Source: Candidatus Woesearchaeota archaeon
GTDB lineage: Archaea; Nanobdellota; Nanobdellia; Pacearchaeales; GW2011-AR1
Length of the DNA: 64,000 nucleotides
Reading direction: 5' to 3'
Assembly (NCBI GenBank): GCA_964466575.1
Contig: CAYXNP010000003.1
Location: forward strand, 21,543 to 85,542
The position numbers and the translations under genes are program-made. Position 1 is the first letter of the stretch. Each line of letters starts with the position of its first letter. Of the stretch, positions 1,358 to 64,000 are shown in pieces. The notes under the pieces were generated by a model. The model had not been told where the DNA came from and did not search any database. It saw only the letters and a program-made list of their open reading frames with translations.

Positions 1358-3340
1358 GTGACGATGAATAATAAAGGGGTACAAAAATATGCATTGGTTT
1401 TCGTTGTGTTATTATTAATTATATTTTCTATGTATTTTGTTCTTGGAGATCATACTGTTACTATAACCAATGGGGCAACTAATTTGACAGTGAAAGAAGA
1501 TTTACAACAAATTTTTAATTTCACTATAAATAGTGGAGATAGAAATAATATAACTCAAATTAATATTACTCTTCCAGCAAATTGTACTTTTACTGCTGGT
1601 TCAAATAATACTAATCTTACAACTAATGATACTTCAAGTGTAACAACAATTGGCAATATTTTTACAAATACAAGTGGAAGTGGAGTTTTGAATAGTACAT
1701 TGAGTTGGTCTAATTTTACAGGAGGTGTTATGAATGGAAGTCATATTGCCAAGTTTTGGTTTAATGCAACTTGTACACATCCAGGTAATTACCCTATTAC
1801 TATAACAACTCTTAATGCAACTGGAGTCAATAGAACTAACTTTAATCTTCAAGTTAATGATACTACTTTTCCTGTTTTGAATTATGGTAATGGAACTACT
1901 GCAAATGCATCTAATCAATTTAATAATATTAATGCCTCTCAACCTTCTATTGATGTAAATATAAGTATAAACGAGCTTTTTGTAAATAAAATAACTTTTG
2001 TTTTGTGGAATAGTTCTGGCTTGTTAAATATAACTGTTTTTTCTTTATCAAATAATTATACAAATACAACTATTAATTGGAGTATTCCTTTAGGAATAGG
2101 TTACAATGAGGGATTAACATATTATTATAATGTTACAGTAAATGATACATTTGGAAATGTTGGAAATTTAAGTCTTACTTCAACTAATGTTACAATTAGA
2201 GATAATATTGGACCTCATGTAACATTTGTAAATCCAGTAGGAACTCCGTATAGAAATCATACAGGAACTATTATATTAAATGCAACTATTACTGACAGAT
2301 TCAATAATGTCCAGTTGGTATTATTTAACATTACAAATGCTACAAGTAGAACTGTTTCACTTCTTACAGCAAGTAATAGAAGTGCAACAAATTGGAATGT
2401 TACGCTTCCTTCTGGAAATGGAAGTTTTCCTGATGGAGTTTATAATATTACTGTAATAGTAAATGATACTATAAGTAATGTAAATAATACAGGTGTAGGC
2501 AGGCTTTTTGGACCTTATAGTGTTATTATAGATAATAGCGGACCTTCAGTAACTTTGGCCTCATTGAGTGCAACTACAAGTTCCTTAGGTGTAACTATTA
2601 CAGCAACAGAAACTGTAAGTAGTATTAATGGGGCATGTACTGTAGATAGATCTGGAGCTACTATTACAGGTTCAAGTACAACTACATCTACAACTCAAAA
2701 TATAACTGAAAGTGGATTAGATTGTGGTCATTCTTATGCTTATATTGCAACTTGTACAAATTATGCAGGTAAAGGCGGTTCATCAGCAGCTACTTCATTT
2801 TCTACTTCAGATTGTGGAACATCTGGAGGAAGTAGCGGAGGAGGCGGGGGTGGAGGAAGTGCTACTGTTTGGAGTAGTACATATATTCCTAAAACAGAAG
2901 AATTGCAAAGTGGATATACTCAAAAGTTAGGTGCTAAGGCTAGAATTAAATTAAGCATAAATGATCAAGAGCATTATGTTGGTGTTAAGAGTTTAACTGC
3001 AACTTCTGCTACACTTGAAGTGGCAAGTACACCTGTAACAATGAGTTTGAATGTTGGGGAAGATACTAAAGTTGATGTAACAAATGATGGATATTATGAT
3101 TTATATGCTAAACTACTTTCTATAAAAGATGGTAAAGCAGAAGTAACTGTAAAAACAATTTATGAAAAAGTTCCAGAAGCTCCAGCAGCAGAAGATACTG
3201 GTGAAACTATTCAAGAAGGGCCAATTAGTGATATTGTTGATAAAGGAAAAGCTAATTTAACTTGGTTGTGGGTATTGATAATAGTTGTTGTTGTGGTTGC
3301 GATTGCTTGGATAATTTATGCTAATAAAAAGAGAAGGTAG
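1358..3340 (+). CDS. cell-surface glycoprotein-like protein (N-terminal hydrophobic signal/anchor, C-terminal TM anchor)
   Basis: N-terminal hydrophobic stretch, dozens of N-x-S/T sequons, a GGSSGGGGGGGS linker, and a C-terminal TM helix followed by KKRR. Confidence 0.7.
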   Translation: MTMNNKGVQKYALVFVVLLLIIFSMYFVLGDHTVTITNGATNLTVKEDLQQIFNFTINSGDRNNITQINITLPANCTFTAGSNNTNLTTNDTSSVTTIGNIFTNTSGSGVLNSTLSWSNFTGGVMNGSHIAKFWFNATCTHPGNYPITITTLNATGVNRTNFNLQVNDTTFPVLNYGNGTTANASNQFNNINASQPSIDVNISINELFVNKITFVLWNSSGLLNITVFSLSNNYTNTTINWSIPLGIGYNEGLTYYYNVTVNDTFGNVGNLSLTSTNVTIRDNIGPHVTFVNPVGTPYRNHTGTIILNATITDRFNNVQLVLFNITNATSRTVSLLTASNRSATNWNVTLPSGNGSFPDGVYNITVIVNDTISNVNNTGVGRLFGPYSVIIDNSGPSVTLASLSATTSSLGVTITATETVSSINGACTVDRSGATITGSSTTTSTTQNITESGLDCGHSYAYIATCTNYAGKGGSSAATSFSTSDCGTSGGSSGGGGGGGSATVWSSTYIPKTEELQSGYTQKLGAKARIKLSINDQEHYVGVKSLTATSATLEVASTPVTMSLNVGEDTKVDVTNDGYYDLYAKLLSIKDGKAEVTVKTIYEKVPEAPAAEDTGETIQEGPISDIVDKGKANLTWLWVLIIVVVVVAIAWIIYANKKRR

Positions 3341-3373
3341 TTTTATCTAAATTTTTATATAGTTATTTTTATT

Positions 3374-4765
3374 TTGTTAATTATGGAAATTGATTTAAAT
3401 GAAGTTATGATTGGTGATTTACATTTGCATTCGAAATATTCCAGAGCAACGTCGATTTATTTGAGTTTTGAAAATTTAGTTAAGTGGGCAAAGATTAAGG
3501 GAATTAATTTATTAGGTACTGGAGATTTTACTCATCCTATTTGGTTTGAAGAGATAAAGAAGTTGGAAAATAATGGCAAAGGGATTTATTTCTTTGATGG
3601 TTTTCCTTTTGTTATTACAGGCGAGATTTCGTTTATTTATACGCAGGAAACATACAACAAATCGCGTTTAGATTCAGATTCCCACCACCACTCCCCAACC
3701 AACTCGCGACTTCACTCCACCACCATCGCGCGAGAAACCCCAAACGTGAAATCGCTCGCCCACCCGAGTGATAGGGAATTTACTGAATCTAAACGCTCGT
3801 TAGAAAGAAAAGGCAGGCGTGTTCATTTGAATGTTTTAGTGCCGAATGTTGAAGTTGCAGAGAAGATTAATTCTTATTTGGATACTAAAGGCAGAAGAGA
3901 TTATGACGGCAGGCCGATTTTTAAGATTTCCTGTGAAGAATTCGTTAGAGAGATGAAGAATATTGACGATAAAATTGAAATTATTCCTGCGCATATTTGG
4001 ACGCCCTGGTTTAGTATGTTTGGGAGCAAGTCAGGTTTTGATTCATTTAAGGAATGTTTTGGAGAAATGAGTGAGAAGGTTTATGCGATTGAAACTGGTA
4101 TGAGCAGTGATCCTGAAATGAACTGGCGTATTGGAGAACTGCATAATAAATCAATTGTTAGTTTTTCAGATAGCCATAGTTTTTGGCCGTTTCGTTTAGG
4201 ACGGGAGGCGACTATTTTTAAGAAGTTTGATTCTTATGATGAACTTGTTAGACAAATTAGAAAAAATGATTTTATTGGTACAATAGAAACAGATCCGGCT
4301 TATGGCAAGTATCATTATGATGGCCATAGGAATTGTAGTTTTTCATGTTCTTTTGAGAAAACTAAAAAATTAAATGGGCTTTGTCCAAAATGCGGAAAAC
4401 CATTGGTGATTGGCGTTGATTATCGTGTTGAGGAATTGGCAACTAATAAAATTGGTTTTAGGCCTCAATGTGCAAAACCTTTTTTTAAATTACTTCCTTT
4501 GCATGAAATTATTGTTTTAGCTAGTGGAGGAAGATTAGAAAGTAATTCAACATGGAATATTTATAATGATTTGATTTCAAAATTTGAAAATGAATTTAAT
4601 ATTTTGTTGAAAGTTTCTAAACCAGAATTTTTTAATAAAAATGTCGACGATAAACTTGTTGAATTGATTTTAAAAAATCGTGAAGGAAAGATTTATGTTA
4701 AGCCAGGTTATGATGGAGAGTATGGTGTTGCTGAACTTGGAGAAAAACAGGCGACGCTGGTTTGA
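3374..4765 (+). CDS. endonuclease Q-like PHP-domain nuclease carrying an in-frame repeat insertion
   Basis: GDLHLHSKYSRA, GTGDFTHP, RRVHLNVLVP, PAHIWTPWF, SFSDSHS..RLGRE, DPAYGKYHYDG, CPKCGKPL and GYDGEYG are collinear with archaeal EndoQ. ATG at 3383 is an alternative start. Confidence 0.8.
   Translation: MLIMEIDLNEVMIGDLHLHSKYSRATSIYLSFENLVKWAKIKGINLLGTGDFTHPIWFEEIKKLENNGKGIYFFDGFPFVITGEISFIYTQETYNKSRLDSDSHHHSPTNSRLHSTTIARETPNVKSLAHPSDREFTESKRSLERKGRRVHLNVLVPNVEVAEKINSYLDTKGRRDYDGRPIFKISCEEFVREMKNIDDKIEIIPAHIWTPWFSMFGSKSGFDSFKECFGEMSEKVYAIETGMSSDPEMNWRIGELHNKSIVSFSDSHSFWPFRLGREATIFKKFDSYDELVRQIRKNDFIGTIETDPAYGKYHYDGHRNCSFSCSFEKTKKLNGLCPKCGKPLVIGVDYRVEELATNKIGFRPQCAKPFFKLLPLHEIIVLASGGRLESNSTWNIYNDLISKFENEFNILLKVSKPEFFNKNVDDKLVELILKNREGKIYVKPGYDGEYGVAELGEKQATLV
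3662..3799. mobile_element. MITE-like insertion (family A core 3703-3758) lying in-frame inside the EndoQ-like gene
   Basis: Perfect 14-bp terminal inverted repeats: GCGTTTAGATTCAG (3664-3677) and CTGAATCTAAACGC (3783-3796). The C-tract-rich core is shared with other copies. Length is about 46 codons. Confidence 0.75.
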
Positions 4766-4770
4766 AGAGA

Positions 4771-4974
4771 ATTAGCTCGCTTCGCGAGATTATATGGCTA
4801 CGTATCCGCCTTGCGGCAGGATTTTTCGCTGAGAGGAAAATTAATGCAGAAAGATTTGAATATATTGTGGCTGATTTTATGGACAGGGTAATGAGATAAT
4901 TTATTTGCTTTTTGGAGCTGCTCGCGCCCACGCTTTGTTATTAATATTTAAGATTGTCAAAACGTAAACGCTCG
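4771..4974. repeat. composite repeat: family F module (about 4775-4850) plus family B copy (4921-4974)
   Basis: The F part aligns with 9843-9956. The B part, CTCGCGCCCACGCTTTGTTATTAATA..TTGTCAAAACGTAAACGCTCG, recurs at 12710, 47572 and 62320 (reverse complement). Confidence 0.7.
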
Positions 4975-5084
4975 TCTCTTATTTTGATAAATTTGTAATG
5001 AGCGTCAGAAGTTTTCTTTCCGCATTTTGGGCAATCTGTTTTTAAAGTGTAAGAATTACAATAAGAGCATTTTTTTAATTTCAT
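4941..5084 (-). CDS. nop10: H/ACA RNP protein Nop10 (47 aa, below the ORF-track cutoff)
   Basis: MKLKKCSYCNSYTLKTDCPKCGKKTSDAH.. matches the Nop10 zinc ribbon. Its ATG overlaps the stop of the upstream NUDIX gene (ATGA). The last ~11 codons lie inside repeat family B. Confidence 0.7.
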   Translation of the reverse strand: MKLKKCSYCNSYTLKTDCPKCGKKTSDAHYKFIKIRDERLRFDNLKY

Positions 5085-5503
5085 TTAAGGTTCATAATAT
5101 ATTCTTTGAGTTTTGGATGGAAAGATGTTGTGAAGTGTTTTTGCATTTCCTGCGGTTTTACCCATTTTAGTTCTGTGAAATCTTTTCCAACTTTTGGTTT
5201 ACCACTTGTGGCTTCACATAAATAATAAATTGATAAGAAGTCTTTTTTTTCAGGATATGTTTTTGCAAAGATAGAGCCTAAACTTTTGACATTATATCCT
5301 GTTTTCTGTTTAATTTTTTTTACTAAAGTTTTTTCTAAATCTCCTTTAGCGTCAAGTCTTCCTCCTGGAAATGCCCATGTTAATTTGGGTATGTAAGGGT
5401 CCTTTTTTCGCTTGCCAATTAGAATTTTTCTGGTTTTTGTGTCAAAAATAACTCCTAATAATATAGTAAAATACTTTGCTTTGTTAAGGGTTTTTGATTT
5501 CAT
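5081..5503 (-). CDS. NUDIX hydrolase
   Basis: GGRLDAKGDLEKTLVKKIKQKTG resembles a (degenerate) Nudix box, and the size is typical. Confidence 0.7.
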   Translation of the reverse strand: MKSKTLNKAKYFTILLGVIFDTKTRKILIGKRKKDPYIPKLTWAFPGGRLDAKGDLEKTLVKKIKQKTGYNVKSLGSIFAKTYPEKKDFLSIYYLCEATSGKPKVGKDFTELKWVKPQEMQKHFTTSFHPKLKEYIMNLK

Positions 5504-5572
5504 TTTGACTTTTTTTTGATAAATTTAAGTTTGAAATTTAGTATTTAAGTTTTTCGTATTTTAAATTGGGTT

Positions 5573-6304
5573 TTACCTTTTCCATTTTTCGTTGAACTCT
5601 ATGCCGAGTTTTTTGGCTTTTTTTTCTATATCTTTTATGAGTTCTTGTAATTCATGGTCTGCTTTTTTTAAGTCAGATGATTCTACTTTTAGCGAATATT
5701 TTCCTGCTGCAATATAAATTATATCTGCTTTTTTAGAAGCACCACTAAGTGATTCTTTAATTAATGACAGGCCATTTGATTTAGTTGTTTTTAATGAGAT
5801 TTCCTTTTTTACAATAGATTTCTTTTGTTTTTCTTTGCTAATAATCTCAAGAATTTTTTCTGATTCATTTTTACCGACGATGTTTTCTAATTTTCTTGGA
5901 GAGGACACACCATCTTTAATATCTTTAATAAAATCATAGATGCTTGATGTCTCTTTTATTTTTTTAATTGTTGAATCTGTTTTATCTTTAAGAATTGTTT
6001 TCAATATATTTTCATATCTTTTTTCTTGTTTGTACATATTCATCACTTCTTTTTTTTCTTTGTTTGTAACTCTTCTTAATGAAAGTTCGACGTTTCCTCG
6101 TGATATTCTTAATATTTTGCATACAATTTTCTTTTTTGGAACTACATAATCTCTTAAGTTACGTATACGTCCAGGAGAGATTTCACTAACTACTATAGAA
6201 CCTTCTTTAGATTTTTCACCATTGCTTTCAATGTGTACAAATACTGTAGTTCCTTCTATTCTATCTACTGTGCATAAAACTGTATCGCCTTCTTCTAGTG
6301 TCAT
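5573..6304 (-). CDS. translation initiation factor 2 subunit alpha (aIF2-alpha)
   Basis: N-terminal S1 domain (EGDTVLCTVDRIEGTTVFVHI...VELSLRRV), with length and layout typical of aIF2-alpha. Confidence 0.8.
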   Translation of the reverse strand: MTLEEGDTVLCTVDRIEGTTVFVHIESNGEKSKEGSIVVSEISPGRIRNLRDYVVPKKKIVCKILRISRGNVELSLRRVTNKEKKEVMNMYKQEKRYENILKTILKDKTDSTIKKIKETSSIYDFIKDIKDGVSSPRKLENIVGKNESEKILEIISKEKQKKSIVKKEISLKTTKSNGLSLIKESLSGASKKADIIYIAAGKYSLKVESSDLKKADHELQELIKDIEKKAKKLGIEFNEKWKR

Positions 6305-6374
6305 AGAAATAATTAATTGAATGGGTTTTTAAGAGTTGTGGAAAGGTTTTTAAAACTGAAAATCAAGCAGTGAA

Positions 6375-6563
6375 ATGGAAGAAGTAAGCGATATCCTTGA
6401 AAGATTAGAATCAGATATGGAGAAGTTATCAGGAGATGAAAATGCAACAAAGGCTTATATGACTGCCCTAGATACAATTCAAGAACTCATTAAAGAAGAT
6501 TACGATCCACATTCTATAAGAACTGCTTTAGCAACATATTGTCTTAGGAAATCAAGATCCTAA
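6375..6563 (+). CDS. hypothetical small protein
   Basis: ORF only; no recognisable motif. Confidence 0.3.
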   Translation: MEEVSDILERLESDMEKLSGDENATKAYMTALDTIQELIKEDYDPHSIRTALATYCLRKSRS

Positions 6564-8360: not shown

Positions 8361-8477
8361 AGCCCCATAGTTTAGTGGTCAAGAATACGGCCCTTTGAAA
8401 GTAAGATGAGGATATTTTTAATTTCTCATTAGGAAAGAAGAAAGGCTGTGACCCCGGTTCGAATCCGGGTGGGGCTA
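8361..8477 (+). tRNA. tRNA-Gln (anticodon TTG) with a 44-nt intron (8399-8442) at the canonical 37/38 position
   Basis: Acceptor AGCCCCA/TGGGGCT, T-arm CCCGG-TTCGAAT-CCGGG. The anticodon stem CGGCC/GGCTG is split by the intron. Confidence 0.8.
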
Positions 8478-39682: not shown

Positions 39683-39823
39683 AGCGGAGACCGGGACTCG
39701 AACCCGGGAAAATCTGCTAACTGCAATCAGCCTTGAGCCTATTTCTAGGGAGAGACTGTGAAGGAGAACCGTTAGGTTCTTCTCATCTGCAGGCAGACGC
39801 AGTAGCCGCTGTGCCATCTCCGC
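39683..39823 (-). tRNA. tRNA-Cys (anticodon GCA) with a 68-nt intron (39719-39786) at 37/38
   Basis: Acceptor GCGGAGA/TCTCCGC, T-arm CCGGG-TTCGAGT-CCCGG. The anticodon stem TCTGC/GCAGA is separated by the intron. Confidence 0.75.
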
Positions 39824-39841: not shown

Positions 39842-39959
39842 TGGCCCGGACAGGATTTGAACCTGCGACCCCCTGCTCTCTCCAGCTTTCTCTCCGAGGT
39901 CTCTTTTCTAAAGAGAGCTCTAGAAGGCAGGTGCTCTATCCAGGCTGAGCTACCGGACC
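39842..39959 (-). tRNA. tRNA-Arg (anticodon TCT) with a 43-nt intron (39878-39920) at 37/38
   Basis: Acceptor GGTCCGG/CCGGGCC, D-arm GCTC..GAGC, T-arm GCAGG-TTCAAAT-CCTGT. The anticodon stem CCTGC/GCAGG is split by the intron. Confidence 0.8.
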
Positions 39960-52189: not shown

Positions 52190-52209
52190 CTCTTACTTTT
52201 CTTAATTTT

Positions 52210-52281
52210 GGCTGCATAGCTCAGCGTTAGAGTATCTGTCTCATGAGCAGAGGGTCCCGGGTTAAACTCCCGGTGTAGCCA
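52210..52281 (+). tRNA. tRNA with CAT anticodon (elongator Met or Ile2)
   Basis: Acceptor GGCTGCA/TGTAGCC, anticodon arm TCTGT-CTCATGA-GCAGA, T-arm CCGGG-TTAAACT-CCCGG. Confidence 0.8.
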
Positions 52282-52971
52282 TTAATTACTCTTTGATTGA
52301 ATGAAATTTTGATATTTCTTTTCGTGTTTAGGGTTTACAAATCCAATTTTTTCATGAAAAAGAATTAAATTGTCTATACCATTAAATTGAAATCTATATT
52401 TATCTTGAACATTCCATCTTAATTCTTGTTTTATTCTTTTACATTTATACACATGTCCTTGTAATCCTTCCTCTGATAGAAAATTATATATTTGTTCAAT
52501 TAATTTCTTATGAATAACATGAGCTTCTAATCTTGGATAGAGTTTATTAGGATTTCTTGTTAAAACTAATGAACCATCTGTTGCAAAAAAGCCTTGAATT
52601 ATGAATTTCAATAAATTATCTTTATAAAATTTTTCTGGAATAATTAAGTCTTTTCCTTTCTTTCCTATGGGAAATCCAAAAGAATTTATTTTATTAAATA
52701 AGATTTTATCACAAAAGTTTAATTCAATTGTTCCCTTTTTTGGTCTTTGTTTAATGTTAATATTTTTTCCTCTTAAGGATATTGTTAAAGGTAATACTAT
52801 TTCTTTAAAGAATTCTTGATCATCATAATAATTACAAGTTATTGATATGGCATATCCTATGCTTCCATATTTACTTTTGTAATGAGATAGACACCCATCA
52901 CCCAGCATTATTCCATAAAATAGAGCAAATTTCTCATCGTCGTTAAGTTTTGTTAAGAGATTATTTTCCAC
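52282..52971 (-). CDS. free-standing double-motif LAGLIDADG homing endonuclease
   Basis: Two LAGLIDADG motifs: FALFYGIMLGDGCL and IIQGFFATDGSLV. Its stop codon abuts the 3' end of the tRNA. Confidence 0.8.
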   Translation of the reverse strand: MENNLLTKLNDDEKFALFYGIMLGDGCLSHYKSKYGSIGYAISITCNYYDDQEFFKEIVLPLTISLRGKNINIKQRPKKGTIELNFCDKILFNKINSFGFPIGKKGKDLIIPEKFYKDNLLKFIIQGFFATDGSLVLTRNPNKLYPRLEAHVIHKKLIEQIYNFLSEEGLQGHVYKCKRIKQELRWNVQDKYRFQFNGIDNLILFHEKIGFVNPKHEKKYQNFIQSKSN

Positions 52972-56856: not shown

Positions 56857-57378
56857 TCAAGTTCTAACCCAATCAACTTCATAATAAGTTATTGAACCTT
56901 CTTCGTCGAGGATTGCGAGGAGAAGTTTCTTTTTTGTTGAATGTGCGACTCGATTTTTCGCTGAGAATTCGTGCCAGGATTGTTTGTTGTTTTCGTGGTC
57001 GACAAAACAAACCCATTTTGCGTGTTCATTTCCAGGACGTTTGCCTTTATTGTAAATCCTGAAATCCGCGCCGAATTTTAAGGCGGTTTTAACTATGTAG
57101 CCTTTTTCGCGAAGGTCCTTGAAGACAGGATATTTTAAAGGAAATTTTTTATCAATTCTTTTAAGTTTATTCATTAATTCTTTTTGTGATATTTGCTTGT
57201 TTCTTGAATCTAATACTTCAAGTTTTCCATTTTCTGTTAAGAACATTGTTTCAGATAAAGAGTAAATGATTTTGTCTCCTTTTTTTTCGCCGAACGCACT
57301 TTTTGTTAAAAGAGAGTGGGCGTTGCTATCATTGCTTGTAATGCTTTTTCCGACAAGGTATGCTTGTATTTTTTCCAT
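56857..57378 (-). CDS. endA: tRNA-splicing endonuclease (EndA)
   Basis: YPVFKDLREKGYIVKTALKFGADFRIYNKG...HAKW motif. The start is moved to ATG 57378. Confidence 0.85.
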   Translation of the reverse strand: MEKIQAYLVGKSITSNDSNAHSLLTKSAFGEKKGDKIIYSLSETMFLTENGKLEVLDSRNKQISQKELMNKLKRIDKKFPLKYPVFKDLREKGYIVKTALKFGADFRIYNKGKRPGNEHAKWVCFVDHENNKQSWHEFSAKNRVAHSTKKKLLLAILDEEGSITYYEVDWVRT

Positions 57379-57677
57379 TATTTGTATTTTTACATCAAGA
57401 TGCAGAAGCATCGATGTTTGCCAAACTTCGTTTAATTATAAATTAAGGAAAGAAAGATATTTAAAGTTTGACTTATATCTATTTGAGTAAAATGAATACT
57501 AACAATAATAAATTTTATATGGAATTTAACAAGTTGTTAGTTGGGATTCTCTCCTGCAAGATTTTGCAATAATTTTTGTCTGACCTTGCGTTATTAATTT
57601 TTAAGTAAGGTTGGACTCATTATTGACTATGTCGTCGGTTAGAGAATTCTATATAAAATTGTAAGGAGGAAAATAAA

Positions 57678-57911
57678 ATGGAAAAAACTGAAGGAAAAGA
57701 AACTTTAATTAGCGTTAGACGTCTTGAGACATGGGATGGATGCACGGACGAATTTGACGAAGGGGTTTATCATATTGGAGAACCAGTTGGAAGAGAAGTT
57801 GGAATTGTCGGTGTTTTGAATTTGTCTTGTCAATACAATGGAAGATTAGATATGCCTGTTGATGTTAAAAAAGATATTGAAAATTTTAAAAGTTACATAA
57901 ATAGACTTTAG
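57678..57911 (+). CDS. hypothetical small protein
   Basis: ORF preceded by AAGGAGG. Confidence 0.45.
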   Translation: MEKTEGKETLISVRRLETWDGCTDEFDEGVYHIGEPVGREVGIVGVLNLSCQYNGRLDMPVDVKKDIENFKSYINRL

Positions 57912-57960: not shown

Positions 57961-60900
57961 ATGAAAAAAGCAAAGAAAGTTGTAAATGTAAAAGGAAAAG
58001 AAGATAAATTAGATTTTTCTAAAATTGAATCGAAATGGCAGAAGTCTTGGGAAGCTAAAAAAGTGTTTGAAGTGAAAGAATCTTCGAAGAAGAAATTTTA
58101 TATTTTGGATATGTTTCCTTATCCTTCTGGAGCGGGTTTGCATATGGGGCACGCTTTTGTTTTTTCGCTTGGAGATATTTATGCGAGATTCAAGAGGCTT
58201 CAAGGTTACAATGTTCTTTATCCGATTGGTTACGATTCTTTAGGTTTGCCTGCAGAGAATGCTGCAATAAAATCTAAAACTCCTCCGAAAAAGTATACAG
58301 AGGATTCTATAAAGAATTTTATGAAACAACAGAAAGCAATGGGGTGGAGTTATGATTGGAGCAGATTAGTGAATACCAGCGACGCTGAATATTATAAATG
58401 GGACCAATGGATTTTCTTGAAAATGCTGGAGAAAGGAATTGCTTATAGAAAAAAATCTGCGGTGAATTATTGCAGGAAGTGCGACACGGTTTTGGCGAAC
58501 GAGCAGGTTATTAATGGAAAGTGCTGGCGTCATGAAGATGTTAATGTTGAAATTAAACATCTTGAGCAGTGGTTTTTTAAGATTACAGATTATGCTGAGG
58601 AATTGTTAGATGGTTTGAATAAAATTGATTGGCCTGAGAAAGCTAAGAAGCTGCAAAAGAATTGGATTGGAAAATCTTACGGAACGGAAGTTGACTTTGA
58701 GATTGAAAATAATGGGAAGGAGAACAAGATTTCAAATGTTGTGATTGTCCATGGATGTCCCTCTAATGTAGAGAAGGCGATGAATGAAAAAACGAGAACT
58801 TATGATAAACATTGGATGCCTTGGCTGAAAAGAGAATTAGGTAAAAATGGAATTAAAACAGAAATTCCTTTAATGCAAACCCCTTGGAAACCTAATTATT
58901 TTGAATGGAAAAAAGAATTTGACAAATTAAATATAAATGAAAATACCATTTTGATTGGACATAGTTGTGGTGGAGCTTTTTTAGTGAGGTGGCTTGATGA
59001 AACAAAGAAAAGAATTAAGAAATTGATTTTAGTTTCTCCTGGGAAATCTGGAAGGGAAGGTAGAAAAGTTTTAACAGATTTTTATGGAAATAAAACTATA
59101 CATGGAATTGAGAGATTTGTGAAAGAACAAATAGTTGTTTATATTTCCGACGATGATATCCCTTATCATATTCCAAGTGCTTATGAATATCAAAAAGAAT
59201 TGAATGCAAGAGTTGTTCGTTTTGACAAGGGATATGGACATTTCACTATTGAAGGCATGGGGACTGAAGAATTTCCAGAATTGCTTGATGAAGTTTTAGG
59301 AAAAAAATCTTGGCCGATATTTACAACTCGCATCGATACAATTTATGGGGTTACTTTTATGGTTGTAAGCGCTCAGCATTCAAATTTGATGGAGATTGTA
59401 ACTGACAGACAGAAGAAAGAAGTTGAAAAGTTTTTAAAAAAAATTAAATCTGTTTCTGAAAAAGAAATGGATGAGCTTGAGAAAGAAGGAGTTTTTACTG
59501 GAAGCTACGCGATAAATCCTTTGACAAAAGACAAAGTTCCGATTTATGCGGGGAATTTTGTCGTCGCTGATTATGGCTCTGGAATGGTTATGGCTGTGCC
59601 TGGCCACGACCAAAGAGATTATGAGTTTGCTGTAAAATATAATTTACCTATTAAAAAAGTTATTGAGCCGCTTGATAGAGAATTCAATTTGAAAGATGAA
59701 GGAAGAGCGTTTGAAGGAAAAGGACGTTTGATTAATTCAAGGACATATAATAATCTGGACAGCGAAAACGCGAAAGAAAATATTACAAAAGATTTGCAAA
59801 AGAAAAGGATTGGCAGGAAGCAGATTCAGTTTCGGTTGAAGGATTGGCTTGTGTCGAGGCAGAGATATTGGGGGACGCCGATTCCAATTATTTATTGTGA
59901 TAAGTGCGGTATTGTCGCTGTTTCTGAAAAAGAGCTGCCTGTTAAACTTCCAGAAAAAGTAAAATTTGGCAAAGGGAATCCGATTGCGACTTCAAAATCT
60001 TTTGTTGAAGTTAAATGTCCAAAGTGTCATGGAAAGGCCAGAAGGGAAACAGATACGATGGACACTTTTGTTAATTCGTCTTGGTATTATTTGCGTTATG
60101 CAGATTCCAAAAATAAAAATAAAATCTTCGACGAGAAGAAAGCGAATTATTGGTGTCCAATTGACCAGTATATTGGCGGGCCAGAACATGTTACAATGCA
60201 TTTGATTTATATTAGGTTTTATACAAAGTTTTTGCGAGATCTCGGACTTTTAAAGTTTGACGAGCCTGCTTTGAAATATTTTACGCAAGGTTTAGTTTAT
60301 GGTTCAGACGGAGAAAAAATGTCAAAGTCTAAAGGAAATATTGTTGAACCTCTTGATATGATTAAGAAATATGGGGCTGATACCTTGAGATTGGCGCTCA
60401 TATCATTAGCATCGCCGGATAAGAATTTTTCTTGGGATGAAAAAATTGTTATAGGAAGCAATAAATTTTTGATTAATGTTTTTAATTATTTTTCAAAAGT
60501 TGAAAATGGAAAAACTTCTAAGAAAATTGAGAGCAAGTTGAATAAAGCAATAAAAGAAATTACTGATGATGTTGAAAATTTTAGGCATTATCTTGCGATT
60601 ATTAAAATAAAGCAATTGTTTAGTTATTTAGTTGATGAAAAAATCAGTAAAGACGATGCAGGCAAGTTTTTGAAACTTTTGCATATTTATTGCCCATTTA
60701 TTACAGAAGAGCTTTGGCATAATTTAGGTAATAAATCATTTATTAGTTTAGAGATTTGGCCAATTTGCGACGAGAAAAAGATAGATGAGAAACTTGAAAG
60801 ACAGGAGGAACAAATTGATAATTTAATTAGAGATGTGAATAATATTCTGAAGATTCTTGAGTCTAAGGGAGAAAAGAAAAATAGCGTTAAGGTTTTTGCG

Positions 60901-61053
60901 ATTCCGAATGAAGTTGATTTGTATAAGAGCGAAATCGAAATAATAAAAAAAAGAGTTAGTTTGGATGTTGAAGTTTTAGATGTTAAGGATGCGAAGAAGA
61001 TTGGCAAAGTGATTAAGGCGAAGCCGGGCAAGCCAGGAATTTATTTGGAGTGA
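57961..61053 (+). CDS. leuS: leucyl-tRNA synthetase (bacterial type) carrying an inserted alpha/beta serine-hydrolase domain
   Basis: HMGH, WIGKSYGTEVDF, TTRIDTIYGVTF, AVPGHDQRDYEF, RQRYWGTPIP and KMSKSKGN are collinear with bacterial LeuRS. Confidence 0.95.
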   Translation: MKKAKKVVNVKGKEDKLDFSKIESKWQKSWEAKKVFEVKESSKKKFYILDMFPYPSGAGLHMGHAFVFSLGDIYARFKRLQGYNVLYPIGYDSLGLPAENAAIKSKTPPKKYTEDSIKNFMKQQKAMGWSYDWSRLVNTSDAEYYKWDQWIFLKMLEKGIAYRKKSAVNYCRKCDTVLANEQVINGKCWRHEDVNVEIKHLEQWFFKITDYAEELLDGLNKIDWPEKAKKLQKNWIGKSYGTEVDFEIENNGKENKISNVVIVHGCPSNVEKAMNEKTRTYDKHWMPWLKRELGKNGIKTEIPLMQTPWKPNYFEWKKEFDKLNINENTILIGHSCGGAFLVRWLDETKKRIKKLILVSPGKSGREGRKVLTDFYGNKTIHGIERFVKEQIVVYISDDDIPYHIPSAYEYQKELNARVVRFDKGYGHFTIEGMGTEEFPELLDEVLGKKSWPIFTTRIDTIYGVTFMVVSAQHSNLMEIVTDRQKKEVEKFLKKIKSVSEKEMDELEKEGVFTGSYAINPLTKDKVPIYAGNFVVADYGSGMVMAVPGHDQRDYEFAVKYNLPIKKVIEPLDREFNLKDEGRAFEGKGRLINSRTYNNLDSENAKENITKDLQKKRIGRKQIQFRLKDWLVSRQRYWGTPIPIIYCDKCGIVAVSEKELPVKLPEKVKFGKGNPIATSKSFVEVKCPKCHGKARRETDTMDTFVNSSWYYLRYADSKNKNKIFDEKKANYWCPIDQYIGGPEHVTMHLIYIRFYTKFLRDLGLLKFDEPALKYFTQGLVYGSDGEKMSKSKGNIVEPLDMIKKYGADTLRLALISLASPDKNFSWDEKIVIGSNKFLINVFNYFSKVENGKTSKKIESKLNKAIKEITDDVENFRHYLAIIKIKQLFSYLVDEKISKDDAGKFLKLLHIYCPFITEELWHNLGNKSFISLEIWPICDEKKIDEKLERQEEQIDNLIRDVNNILKILESKGEKKNSVKVFAIPNEVDLYKSEIEIIKKRVSLDVEVLDVKDAKKIGKVIKAKPGKPGIYLE
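58735..59310 (+). other. RBBP9/YdeN-type serine-hydrolase domain inserted in-frame in LeuRS (about aa 259-450)
   Basis: VVIVHG, HWMPWLKREL, GHSCGG (GxSxG), LILVSPG, ISDDDIPY and GYGHF appear in the order typical of this family. Boundaries are approximate. Confidence 0.7.
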
Positions 61054-63409: not shown

Positions 63410-64000
63410 TTATTCTACTATTCCTTTTATTCTTCTCACGCCAGCAGCGACAGATTCTTCTTTTGTTATTTTGAATTTACCGATTTCACTTGTGTTTGAG
63501 ACATGAGGGCCTGTGCATATTTCTTTGCTGAAATTACCGACGCTGAAAACAGTAACTTTGTTTGGATATTTGCTTCCGAATTCTGCTTGCGCGCCTGATT
63601 TGAGAGCTTCTTTTAATGAGAGCTCTTCTGATGTGACAGGAAGTGCTTGTTTTATTTTTTCATTGACAAGAGTTTCAATTTTATTTTTTTCTTCGTCGGT
63701 AAGTTTTCTGTCAAAGTTAAAATCGAAACGCAATCTTTCAGGAGTTATGTTAGAGCCTTTTTGCTTGACTTGTGGGCCGAGAACTTTTCTTAGAGATTCA
63801 TTAAGAAGATGAGTCGCTGTGTGGAGTTTTTTTGTTTTTTCGCTGTTATCTGATAAACCGGATTTGAATCTTCCAGCAGAAGATGTTTGTGAAAGTTTTT
63901 GATGATTATTAAGTTCATTTCTAAAATCGTGGTGGTTTACTAAGAATCCCTTTATTATCGCAAGTTCATCTATCATTTCAAGTGGGAAGCCATATGATTG
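63410..64000 (-). CDS. alaS: alanyl-tRNA synthetase, C-terminal part (editing domain); continues beyond the window end
   Basis: HTATHLLNESLRKVLGPQVKQKGSNITPERLRFDF, GAQAEFGSKYP, FSKEICTGPHV and GVRRIKGI. The frame stays open to position 64000. Confidence 0.85.
   Translation of the reverse strand, partial: QSYGFPLEMIDELAIIKGFLVNHHDFRNELNNHQKLSQTSSAGRFKSGLSDNSEKTKKLHTATHLLNESLRKVLGPQVKQKGSNITPERLRFDFNFDRKLTDEEKNKIETLVNEKIKQALPVTSEELSLKEALKSGAQAEFGSKYPNKVTVFSVGNFSKEICTGPHVSNTSEIGKFKITKEESVAAGVRRIKGIVE

Follow-up and report, generated by a model that had tools for sequence, protein, structure and literature searches.

A YdeN/RBBP9-family serine hydrolase nested in the CP1 editing domain of a bacterial-type leucyl-tRNA synthetase from a DPANN archaeon

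Introduction

The leuS gene in the stretch of DNA analysed here, a 64,000-nucleotide segment of a Candidatus Woesearchaeota archaeon contig that we call the window, encodes a leucyl-tRNA synthetase (LeuRS) in which, with near certainty, a complete alpha/beta serine hydrolase of the YdeN/RBBP9 family is nested in a hairpin of the CP1 editing domain and translated as part of the synthetase. The two enzymes probably work together, in a manner not previously described, because the same two genes have been joined many separate times in related DPANN archaea and in bacteria of the candidate phyla radiation (CPR). Synthetase proofreading is, to our knowledge, thought to rest on a small, closed set of editing folds, to which this hydrolase does not belong: when the insert was compared with the known aminoacyl-tRNA editing families (CP1, YbaK/INS, AlaX and DTD), Pfam and NCBIfam returned alpha/beta-hydrolase families only.

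A whole serine hydrolase inside LeuRS

The host gene is an open reading frame (ORF) of 1030 amino acids on the plus strand (57961-61053), with no internal stops, and the embedded hydrolase, recognized from profile, structure and end-to-end homologues, occupies positions 58735-59310. These coordinates, proposed in an initial annotation made from the letters of the sequence, correspond exactly to residues 259-450, and all of the motifs quoted in that annotation were found, in the order it gave. The assignment to the RBBP9/YdeN group held in profile searches, with the Pfam family PF06821 (Ser_hydrolase) scoring 47.4 bits on the excised nucleotides and 42.6 bits within the full protein against a cutoff of 22, and with the excised insert matching YdeN of Bacillus subtilis (1uxo; E=7e-12) and, more weakly, human RBBP9 (E of about 3e-3). 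An AlphaFold2 (AF2) model of the insert (predicted local distance difference test, pLDDT, 87.6; predicted template-modelling score, pTM, 0.87) has RBBP9 and YdeN as its best Foldseek neighbours in the PDB, with TM-scores of 0.76-0.84 and root-mean-square deviations (rmsd) of 2.7-3.2 A (TM 0.82/0.84 and rmsd 2.7 A for 1uxo, TM 0.76/0.80 for 2qs9, at 23-26% identity), and the predicted fold therefore appears superposable on that of the family.

The catalytic residues can be placed by alignment, in which the GxSxG nucleophile elbow, the acidic DD and the GHF histidine of the insert all line up with those of YdeN. The elbow, GHSCGG (58957-58974), contains Ser335 (codon at 58963-58965), which aligns with the nucleophile of both YdeN and RBBP9; the acidic member lies in a run of three aspartates, Asp397-399 (59149-59157), of which Asp398/399 align with the YdeN DD; and the catalytic histidine, His427 (59239-59241), sits in GYGHFT. 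The serine and the histidine are each kept in 60/60 embedded and 120/120 free-standing homologues, the third triad position holds an acidic residue, D or E, in 58/60 of the embedded and 117/120 of the free ones, and the HG of the oxyanion region is retained in 59-60 of the 60 embedded ones. The Ser-Asp-His triad, thought intact from the first, is near-invariant across these 180 homologues and follows the order of the family, and judged by sequence the embedded hydrolase is apparently active.

Free-standing DPANN and CPR proteins of 188-193 residues are up to 67-68% identical to the insert and align with it from residue 2 (M-N-C-I-I-V-H-G...) to the C terminus (...PELLKEIL), and since the alignment runs end to end the insert amounts to a whole gene. 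No GC discontinuity was seen across the inserted segment, and no second copy of the hydrolase was found within the 64-kb window.

The insertion point in CP1

In close relatives of this LeuRS that have no insert, the sequence across the site is GTEIDFEINGKNWPIFTTRPDT; the window protein reads GTEVDFEIENNGKENKIS, then 192 residues of hydrolase, then WPIFTTRIDT. As the insert-less relatives read straight through the site, the approximately 192 residues represent a clean insertion, made in place of the four-residue turn of the first CP1 beta-hairpin. Alignment and AF2 together define what lies on either side, namely the outgoing strand of the hairpin with a flexible linker (GTEVDFEIENNGKENKIS, aa 241-258, 58681-58734) and the return strand (aa 450-455 in the model) with the Thr-rich editing peptide WPIFTTRIDT (aa 451-460, 59311-59340). 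Relative to Thermus thermophilus LeuRS, the break falls between E240 and I243; W451 corresponds to I243 and T455/T456 to T247/T248, which puts the C terminus of the hydrolase four residues before the Thr-rich editing peptide. The initial annotation had located the hydrolase beside the editing site, which stands, and at the entry to CP1, which calls for refinement, since the site falls within the Pfam CP1 model (PF13603), between model positions ~21 and 22. The hairpin in question differs from the zinc-bearing 'CP1 hairpin' of the LeuRS literature (PMC4138327).

In the full-length AF2 model (pLDDT 84.7, pTM 0.72), the hydrolase is predicted to form a separate domain while both strands of the hairpin are retained (238-249 and 450-455). 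The two predicted linkers are of unequal character: the N-terminal one is floppy (pLDDT <50 at 252-254), and the C-terminal one is nearly nil, with helix 439-446, the last of the hydrolase, leading into strand 450-455 of the editing peptide across only ~3 residues.

An intact synthetase around the insert

The remainder of the protein is that of a bacterial-type LeuRS. The NCBIfam profile for bacterial leuS, TIGR00396, matches the 1030-residue ORF with 861.4 bits (cutoff 548.4) in two stretches split by the insert, and in a Pfam scan PF06821 appears among the three domains expected of a LeuRS: class I catalytic, editing (PF13603, 202.7 bits) and anticodon-binding. CP1 is in the bacterial position and the whole is collinear with T. 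thermophilus LeuRS (1h3n). The HIGH signature, here HMGH (aa 61-64, 58141-58152), keeps H61, G63 and H64 in relatives with and without the insert, and the KMSKS signature (aa 786-790, 60316-60330) is likewise kept across relatives. The conserved Asp553 of the CP1 editing site falls within AVPGHDQRDYEF (59593-59628), a motif identified from residue conservation among relatives; H549, D550, R552 and D553 are kept in 59-60 of 60 insert-bearing and in 59/59 insert-less relatives. The downstream editing domain, with its TTRIDT and HDQRD motifs present, is as complete as it had first looked. Across the alignment of relatives, TTRxDT, HDxRD, HIGH and KMSKS are equally conserved in LeuRS with and without the insert. 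Because the CP1 residues are intact in both, the hydrolase is an addition to LeuRS and not a stand-in for a decayed editing site, and replacement of a degenerate CP1 is thereby ruled out.

Two further features of the host deserve mention. The leucine-specific domain, an accessory and not a defining element that is found in many but not all bacterial LeuRS, is absent before KMSKS: residues 580-636 of the T. thermophilus enzyme are without counterpart, the query passing from aa 781 to aa 786 (window 60301-60330). The C terminus (..KAKPGKPGIYLE) is similar to that of an archaeal-type LeuRS (..ARPGKVGVLVE) encoded at a Woesearchaeota locus, L064, and this resemblance of the two sequences may point to an archaeal-style C-terminal domain in the window LeuRS.

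Repeated linkage of the hydrolase to LeuRS

The initial annotation knew of no described case of a second hydrolase beside the proofreading site of a synthetase, but the survey of orthologues shows that the insertion is not a one-off. Among the 120 LeuRS clusters nearest to the window protein, taken at full length, 60 carry an insert of >150 aa at the hairpin site, all but one of the PF06821 type; one protein (P0151) has a weak HAD-like domain at the hairpin instead of the hydrolase. A junction-spanning query searched against 1.84 billion representative proteins showed the hydrolase at this hairpin in many clusters (defined at 50% identity), some of which are only 30-40% identical to the window insert. 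The hydrolase also sits elsewhere in LeuRS, namely before CP1 (~199-206 in the reference P0154), at a second CP1 loop that we term site 2 (358-372), after CP1 and near the C-terminal region, and in all it occupies five or more distinct LeuRS positions across lineages. The architecture is thus common in DPANN and CPR LeuRS, at several sites, with the hydrolase occurring as an adjacent gene too. An impression of uniqueness had arisen from an insert-only search, the best 120 hits of which were free-standing proteins of ~190 residues, the window's own LeuRS not being among them; the full-length, representatives and genome surveys overturned it.

As the junction-spanning query carried LeuRS flanks, a hydrolase-only alignment was also searched against one genome per GTDB species. 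It gave >433 relatives, in Woese-, Pace- and Nanoarchaeota and many Patescibacteria, and genomic context was read for the best 80 loci. Of those 80, 28 are LeuRS-linked: 22 are embedded in LeuRS (17 at the hairpin, 3 at site 2 and 2 after CP1) and 6 adjacent to it (5 as a separate gene directly beside a bacterial-type leuS and 1 lying 120 nt upstream of an archaeal-type LeuRS matching TIGR00395 with 845 bits). A further 50 are free-standing with no LeuRS within 3 kb, 2 are extended C-terminally by ~130 aa, and no copy lies inside a protein other than LeuRS. One genome has both an embedded and a free copy (L018 and L084).

The adjacent copies lie very close to leuS. At two loci (L022 and L074) the leuS stop overlaps the hydrolase start as ATGA (..GAATGAAA..), at two others (L023 and L052) the genes are 2-3 nt apart, and at L042 the hydrolase gene lies between leuS and EndA, the tRNA-splicing endonuclease gene that synteny marks as the conserved divergent neighbour of leuS (56857-57411, minus strand, in the window). 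At L064 the hydrolase gene (3001-3558) is followed by an archaeal-type LeuRS of different architecture (3678-6518). The free-standing gene most similar to the window insert, P0003 (on L011 and L012), adjoins an EndA gene 71% identical in nucleotides to that of the window; the two independent EndA-hydrolase assemblies both stop 15 nt past the hydrolase stop codon (L011, 2264-2279; L012, 1001-1016), and this shared contig end suggests a branch in the assembly graph, through strain variation or a repeat. More broadly, a frame of S17e, orf326, EndA and, divergently from it, a small ORF, leuS and, further on, an AlaRS-like gene is conserved among loci, and at one syntenic locus sister lineages have the hydrolase upstream of leuS, downstream of it, inside it or not at all. 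In the window the small ORF (57678-57911, plus strand) encodes 77 aa, has no recorded Pfam match and immediately precedes leuS, and one of 77-102 aa occupies the same position in 2 of 3 insert-less loci examined (L096 and L098). Adjacent and embedded copies are, moreover, each other's nearest relatives, with a nearest-neighbour assortativity of 0.81 against 0.33 when permuted (0/2000 permutations as high), a signal that is partly confounded by taxonomy.

Purifying selection and cassette exchange

The embedded hydrolase is kept under purifying selection, the ratio of nonsynonymous to synonymous substitution rates (dN/dS) in unsaturated pairs being 0.11 and 0.13 for the hydrolase and 0.16 and 0.07 for the rest of LeuRS. 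Its history is nevertheless separate from that of its host, in that the hydrolase cassette, at times together with CP1, is exchanged between lineages by recombination. Between the window protein and P0122, the LeuRS body is 99% identical, CP1 84% and the hydrolase 52%. At the DNA level the same comparison, with the locus of the sister strain L010, shows a sharp break: a mosaic tract comprising the hydrolase and most of CP1 (58646-59800, plus strand; approximately 5978-7130 in L010) has 47-88% nucleotide identity between flanks of 97-100%, and synonymous divergence (dS) is 1.58 in the hydrolase and 0.27 in the rest of the gene; the pair L018 and L027 gives the reverse pattern, with dS of 0.55 in the hydrolase and 1.72 elsewhere. 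A smaller divergent patch is also seen against L010, at 58106-58375 (84-93% identity). Over all pairs, the identity of the insert correlates with that of the LeuRS body at only r=0.14. Vertical co-evolution of insert and host was ruled out by this low correlation, the sharp mosaic tract and the decoupling of dS in both directions.

Other cassettes in CP1 and other hosts of the hydrolase

The hairpin is not the only part of CP1 to receive domains. Site 2, which is short and empty in the window (aa 565-588, 59653-59724, plus strand, flanked by IPVKVVI and AYTGxGxL), is another hot spot for insertions among relatives, where it contains a NUDIX domain, a nucleotidyltransferase (PF14907/PF10706), the YdeN hydrolase or domains of ~100 aa with no Pfam match (P0134, P0137, P0150, P0185, P0193, P0197, P0138, P0170, P0235, P0151 and P0226 bear on this site). 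NUDIX is its commonest insert, and several of the unmatched domains have in common a G-x-WY-x-S-x-G-like motif. The hairpin of relatives, for its part, may also contain a different YdeN subtype, the two subtypes in tandem or a weak HAD-like domain. NUDIX and HIT families, which act on by-products of synthetases (ApnA and aminoacyl-AMP), are also represented by separate genes 3-5 kb upstream of leuS in the conserved locus (L098, 1-843; L010, 334-684).

Conversely, the hydrolase has rare hosts other than LeuRS, namely a ValRS fragment, UvrB, a GT2 glycosyltransferase, EngA (between its two GTPase domains) and a fusion to YdjC (P0313, P0265, P0253, P0292 and P0309), as well as NUDIX fusions. Two paralogues occur on one contig, L013 (2881-3444 and 8001-8576), and another copy on L014 (8001-8567), both in sugar-phosphate gene surroundings.

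What the embedded hydrolase may do

Functional coupling of the hydrolase to LeuRS is likely. The initial annotation had suggested an additional deacylase or proofreading activity, or a moonlighting esterase. The coupling to LeuRS in particular, over and over, favours a LeuRS-related role above pure moonlighting, while leaving the substrate unspecified, and the geometry of the fusions is suggestive as well: adjacent genes fuse most easily end to end, yet internal insertions in and around CP1 predominate. The explanation that we favour overall, as an evenly balanced proposition, is that of a putative LeuRS-tethered accessory hydrolase, which would cleave a small aminoacyl-linked compound that LeuRS generates or handles; the embedded copies would have been derived from a neighbouring gene by repeated relocation into the synthetase. 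For the substrate class we can be no more than tentative. The likeliest would be the ester bond at the 3' end of mis-acylated tRNA-Leu, or else a non-cognate aminoacyl-adenylate or ester after its release, in which case the insert would provide a second hydrolytic clean-up site beside CP1, operating by serine-hydrolase chemistry. Norvaline, the main physiological target of LeuRS editing, builds up under oxygen limitation, which would be relevant to these anaerobic groundwater organisms. What is known of the family bears on such chemistry: RBBP9, a serine aminopeptidase, depends on a free alpha-amine, forms an aminoacyl-enzyme and trims N-terminal hydrophobic or aromatic residues (PMC8866121), and ML-005, a relative of YdeN, acts as a short-chain esterase through a triad proven by mutagenesis, YdeN itself having no lid (PMC6119806).

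A more far-reaching form of the proposal, possible but doubtful, is that CPR and DPANN lineages have, by convergence, attached a Ser-His-Asp hydrolase to class Ia synthetases (both LeuRS types and occasionally ValRS), where it would form a third site of proofreading or clean-up with a new mechanism, CP1 serving in addition as a docking platform for swappable cassettes (hydrolase, NUDIX, nucleotidyltransferase and others) that process aminoacyl or nucleotide by-products.

Several observations weigh against a tethered accessory. In many cases an embedded copy resembles a free-standing gene more closely than it does any other embedded copy, and no core residues were found that separate embedded from free copies beyond the linkers; taken together, these give no sign of a new specificity after embedding. 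Tyr99 of RBBP9, which contacts the alpha-amine, is not kept, aligning with Gly in the insert, and the alignment stops before Glu108; the Tyr99/Glu108 pocket marks RBBP9 activity and not membership of PF06821. The presence of unrelated domains in the same CP1 loops fits structural permissiveness; the hydrolase occasionally lies in UvrB, a GT2 glycosyltransferase, EngA or YdjC; and some free-standing homologues occur away from leuS amid genes for GAPDH-PGK, ribulose-phosphate epimerase (Rpe), RpiB and transketolase, a sugar-phosphate context that hints at a role unrelated to LeuRS for some members of the family. Gene proximity alone could also bias rearrangements toward leuS.

These same points lend themselves to the foremost alternative, which we consider rather unlikely: that an independent housekeeping esterase is hitch-hiking in LeuRS, a small neighbouring gene having been captured in permissive CP1 loops by local rearrangement in streamlined genomes, with co-expression as the only consequence and no link to leucylation or editing. 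The lack of embedded-specific residues, the intermixing and swapping of embedded and free copies, the unrelated domains in the same loops, the rare insertions in other proteins and the sugar-phosphate clusters would all be expected of such an element, and the NUDIX and HIT genes a few kb from leuS in some loci indicate that neighbours may be a source of inserts. A hitch-hiker does not, however, readily account for all 22 of 22 embedded copies among the best 80 loci of the hydrolase-only scan being in LeuRS, for at least five independent LeuRS sites, for adjacency with overlapping stop and start codons that extends to the non-orthologous archaeal-type LeuRS, for the ValRS case or for the preference for internal sites around CP1 over simpler terminal fusion.

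Less probable again is a role in amino-acid supply, whereby an RBBP9-like aminopeptidase or esterase would free leucine or other hydrophobic residues at LeuRS and so aid the charging of tRNA-Leu in auxotrophic DPANN and CPR symbionts. The hosts are indeed DPANN and CPR lineages, in which amino-acid auxotrophy is the general rule, the hydrolase is linked specifically to LeuRS and ValRS, and the preference of RBBP9 for hydrophobic and aromatic N-terminal residues with a free alpha-amine would suit such a task. Placement in CP1 would nonetheless be unneeded, as a terminal fusion or a plain operon would suffice; the substrate-contacting Tyr99 of RBBP9 is lost; and the characterized YdeN relative is an esterase and not a peptidase.

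A third alternative, self-protection, is quite improbable. Here, the tethered hydrolase, along with the NUDIX, nucleotidyltransferase and HAD-like cassettes, would inactivate LeuRS inhibitors, such as aminoacyl-adenylate mimics or binders of the editing site, at the place where they act. Small-molecule modification or detoxification is typical of the inserted families, the cassette and CP1 form a mosaic, often-exchanged tract of a kind frequent at conflict loci, and an IleRS with an added N-acetyltransferase domain (NF040702 in NCBIfam) offers, by analogy with MccE-type resistance, a conceivable parallel; against this, no LeuRS inhibitor is known for these organisms, the support is entirely circumstantial, and a dN/dS of about 0.1 runs contrary to diversifying selection within the domain.

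Next to no probability attaches to the hydrolase being a chimeric assembly, an intein, an archaeal bulge-helix-bulge intron or a transposon that is outside the mature enzyme, even though a splicing endonuclease, EndA, is encoded next door and the insert is a complete ORF-sized unit, for the AF2 model folds both domains with the hairpin preserved, the dN/dS is about 0.1 and each kind of artefact has its own refutation. The identical 1030-residue protein recurs on 17 contigs of groundwater metagenomes that were assembled independently (ENA and JGI), and the reading frame is kept across inserts of variable length (185-203 aa) in 60 diverged homologues; the independent contigs, with dozens of diverged homologues under purifying selection, rule out chimeric assembly. 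Intein, intron and transposon are excluded by junction residues, cofolding and repeat searches, respectively: the junctions, ..KIS|NVVIVHG.. and ..LGKKS|WPIF.., have no Cys/Ser/Thr ... His-Asn intein boundary and residue types that are not conserved across the 60 homologues; pairing of the two junctions as a bulge-helix-bulge is no better than in shuffled sequences (cofold z of -0.36, +1.26 and +0.42); and no flanking direct or terminal repeats, and hence no transposon or insertion-sequence signature, were found at 58735 or 59310. In this respect sequence, repeat and alignment checks agree with the initial annotation, which had reported no intein residues, stops or flanking repeats.

Relation to known systems

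One of the closest precedents for a LeuRS-tethered hydrolase is CP1 itself, which in the class Ia synthetases (LeuRS, IleRS and ValRS) is a hydrolytic insert placed to receive the tRNA 3' end. CP1 has no covalent Ser-His-Asp triad, whereas the window insert is an alpha/beta hydrolase of unrelated fold with such a triad, nested in CP1 beside the Thr-rich peptide. In a catalogue of domain insertions published in 2026 (PMC13114784), PF13603 features solely as an inserted module, with no event in which it acts as host, an entry that the LeuRS with domains inside PF13603 contradict. With YdeN (1uxo), RBBP9 (2qs9/7oex) and ML-005 the insert shares PF06821, fold, order of the triad and a lid-less size of ~190 aa; these characterized members differ in all being free-standing and are only 23-26% identical to it, and no link between them and tRNA synthetases was found in the open-access literature.

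The editing modules of other synthetases, such as ProRS INS/YbaK, AlaX, ThrRS N2 and D-Tyr-tRNA deacylase, resemble the present case in that an extra hydrolase is either fused or encoded by a separate gene, with both states found across lineages; the insert showed no homology to any of them in Pfam and NCBIfam, the likeness being one of concept. The IleRS of NF040702 is comparable as a class Ia synthetase with an extra, unrelated small-molecule enzyme domain, which there is of the GNAT family and here a serine hydrolase. LeuRS-hydrolase sequences are abundant in public data, and yet NCBIfam has no model for the architecture, some members being named only 'class I tRNA ligase family protein', and no published description of it was found in the open-access full-text literature. 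We see the architecture as a variation on synthetases with accessory hydrolytic or other enzyme domains, one that stands a realistic chance of proving to be a proofreading module with a new mechanism.

Other features of the window

Three Rfam tRNA matches of 117-141 nt that ARAGORN did not call (8361-8477, 39683-39823 and 39842-39959, two of them in tandem) are probably intron-containing tRNA genes, which fits with the presence of the EndA gene. An ORF of 229 aa with a faint LAGLIDADG_3 match (52282-52971, minus strand) abuts a tRNA-Met gene (52209-52282). The AlaRS-like gene near leuS (63410-63976, minus strand, in the window; 11450-13294 on L001) encodes ~562-614 aa with PF01411 and the tRNA_SAD editing domain, which is short for AlaRS.

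Concluding remarks

Repeated recruitment of an alpha/beta serine hydrolase to LeuRS would mean that a core enzyme of translation has acquired an accessory module of a new kind. The LeuRS described here demonstrate that CP1 is able to host whole enzymes, at two loops, and so offer a natural blueprint for synthetase engineering by domain insertion; were the hydrolase to prove unrelated to leucylation, the locus would still be a clear case of cassette-like domain insertion and exchange in an essential gene. For CPR and DPANN, the two radiations with the most reduced genomes, the linkage to LeuRS provides a testable hypothesis for what a protein family common in both may do.

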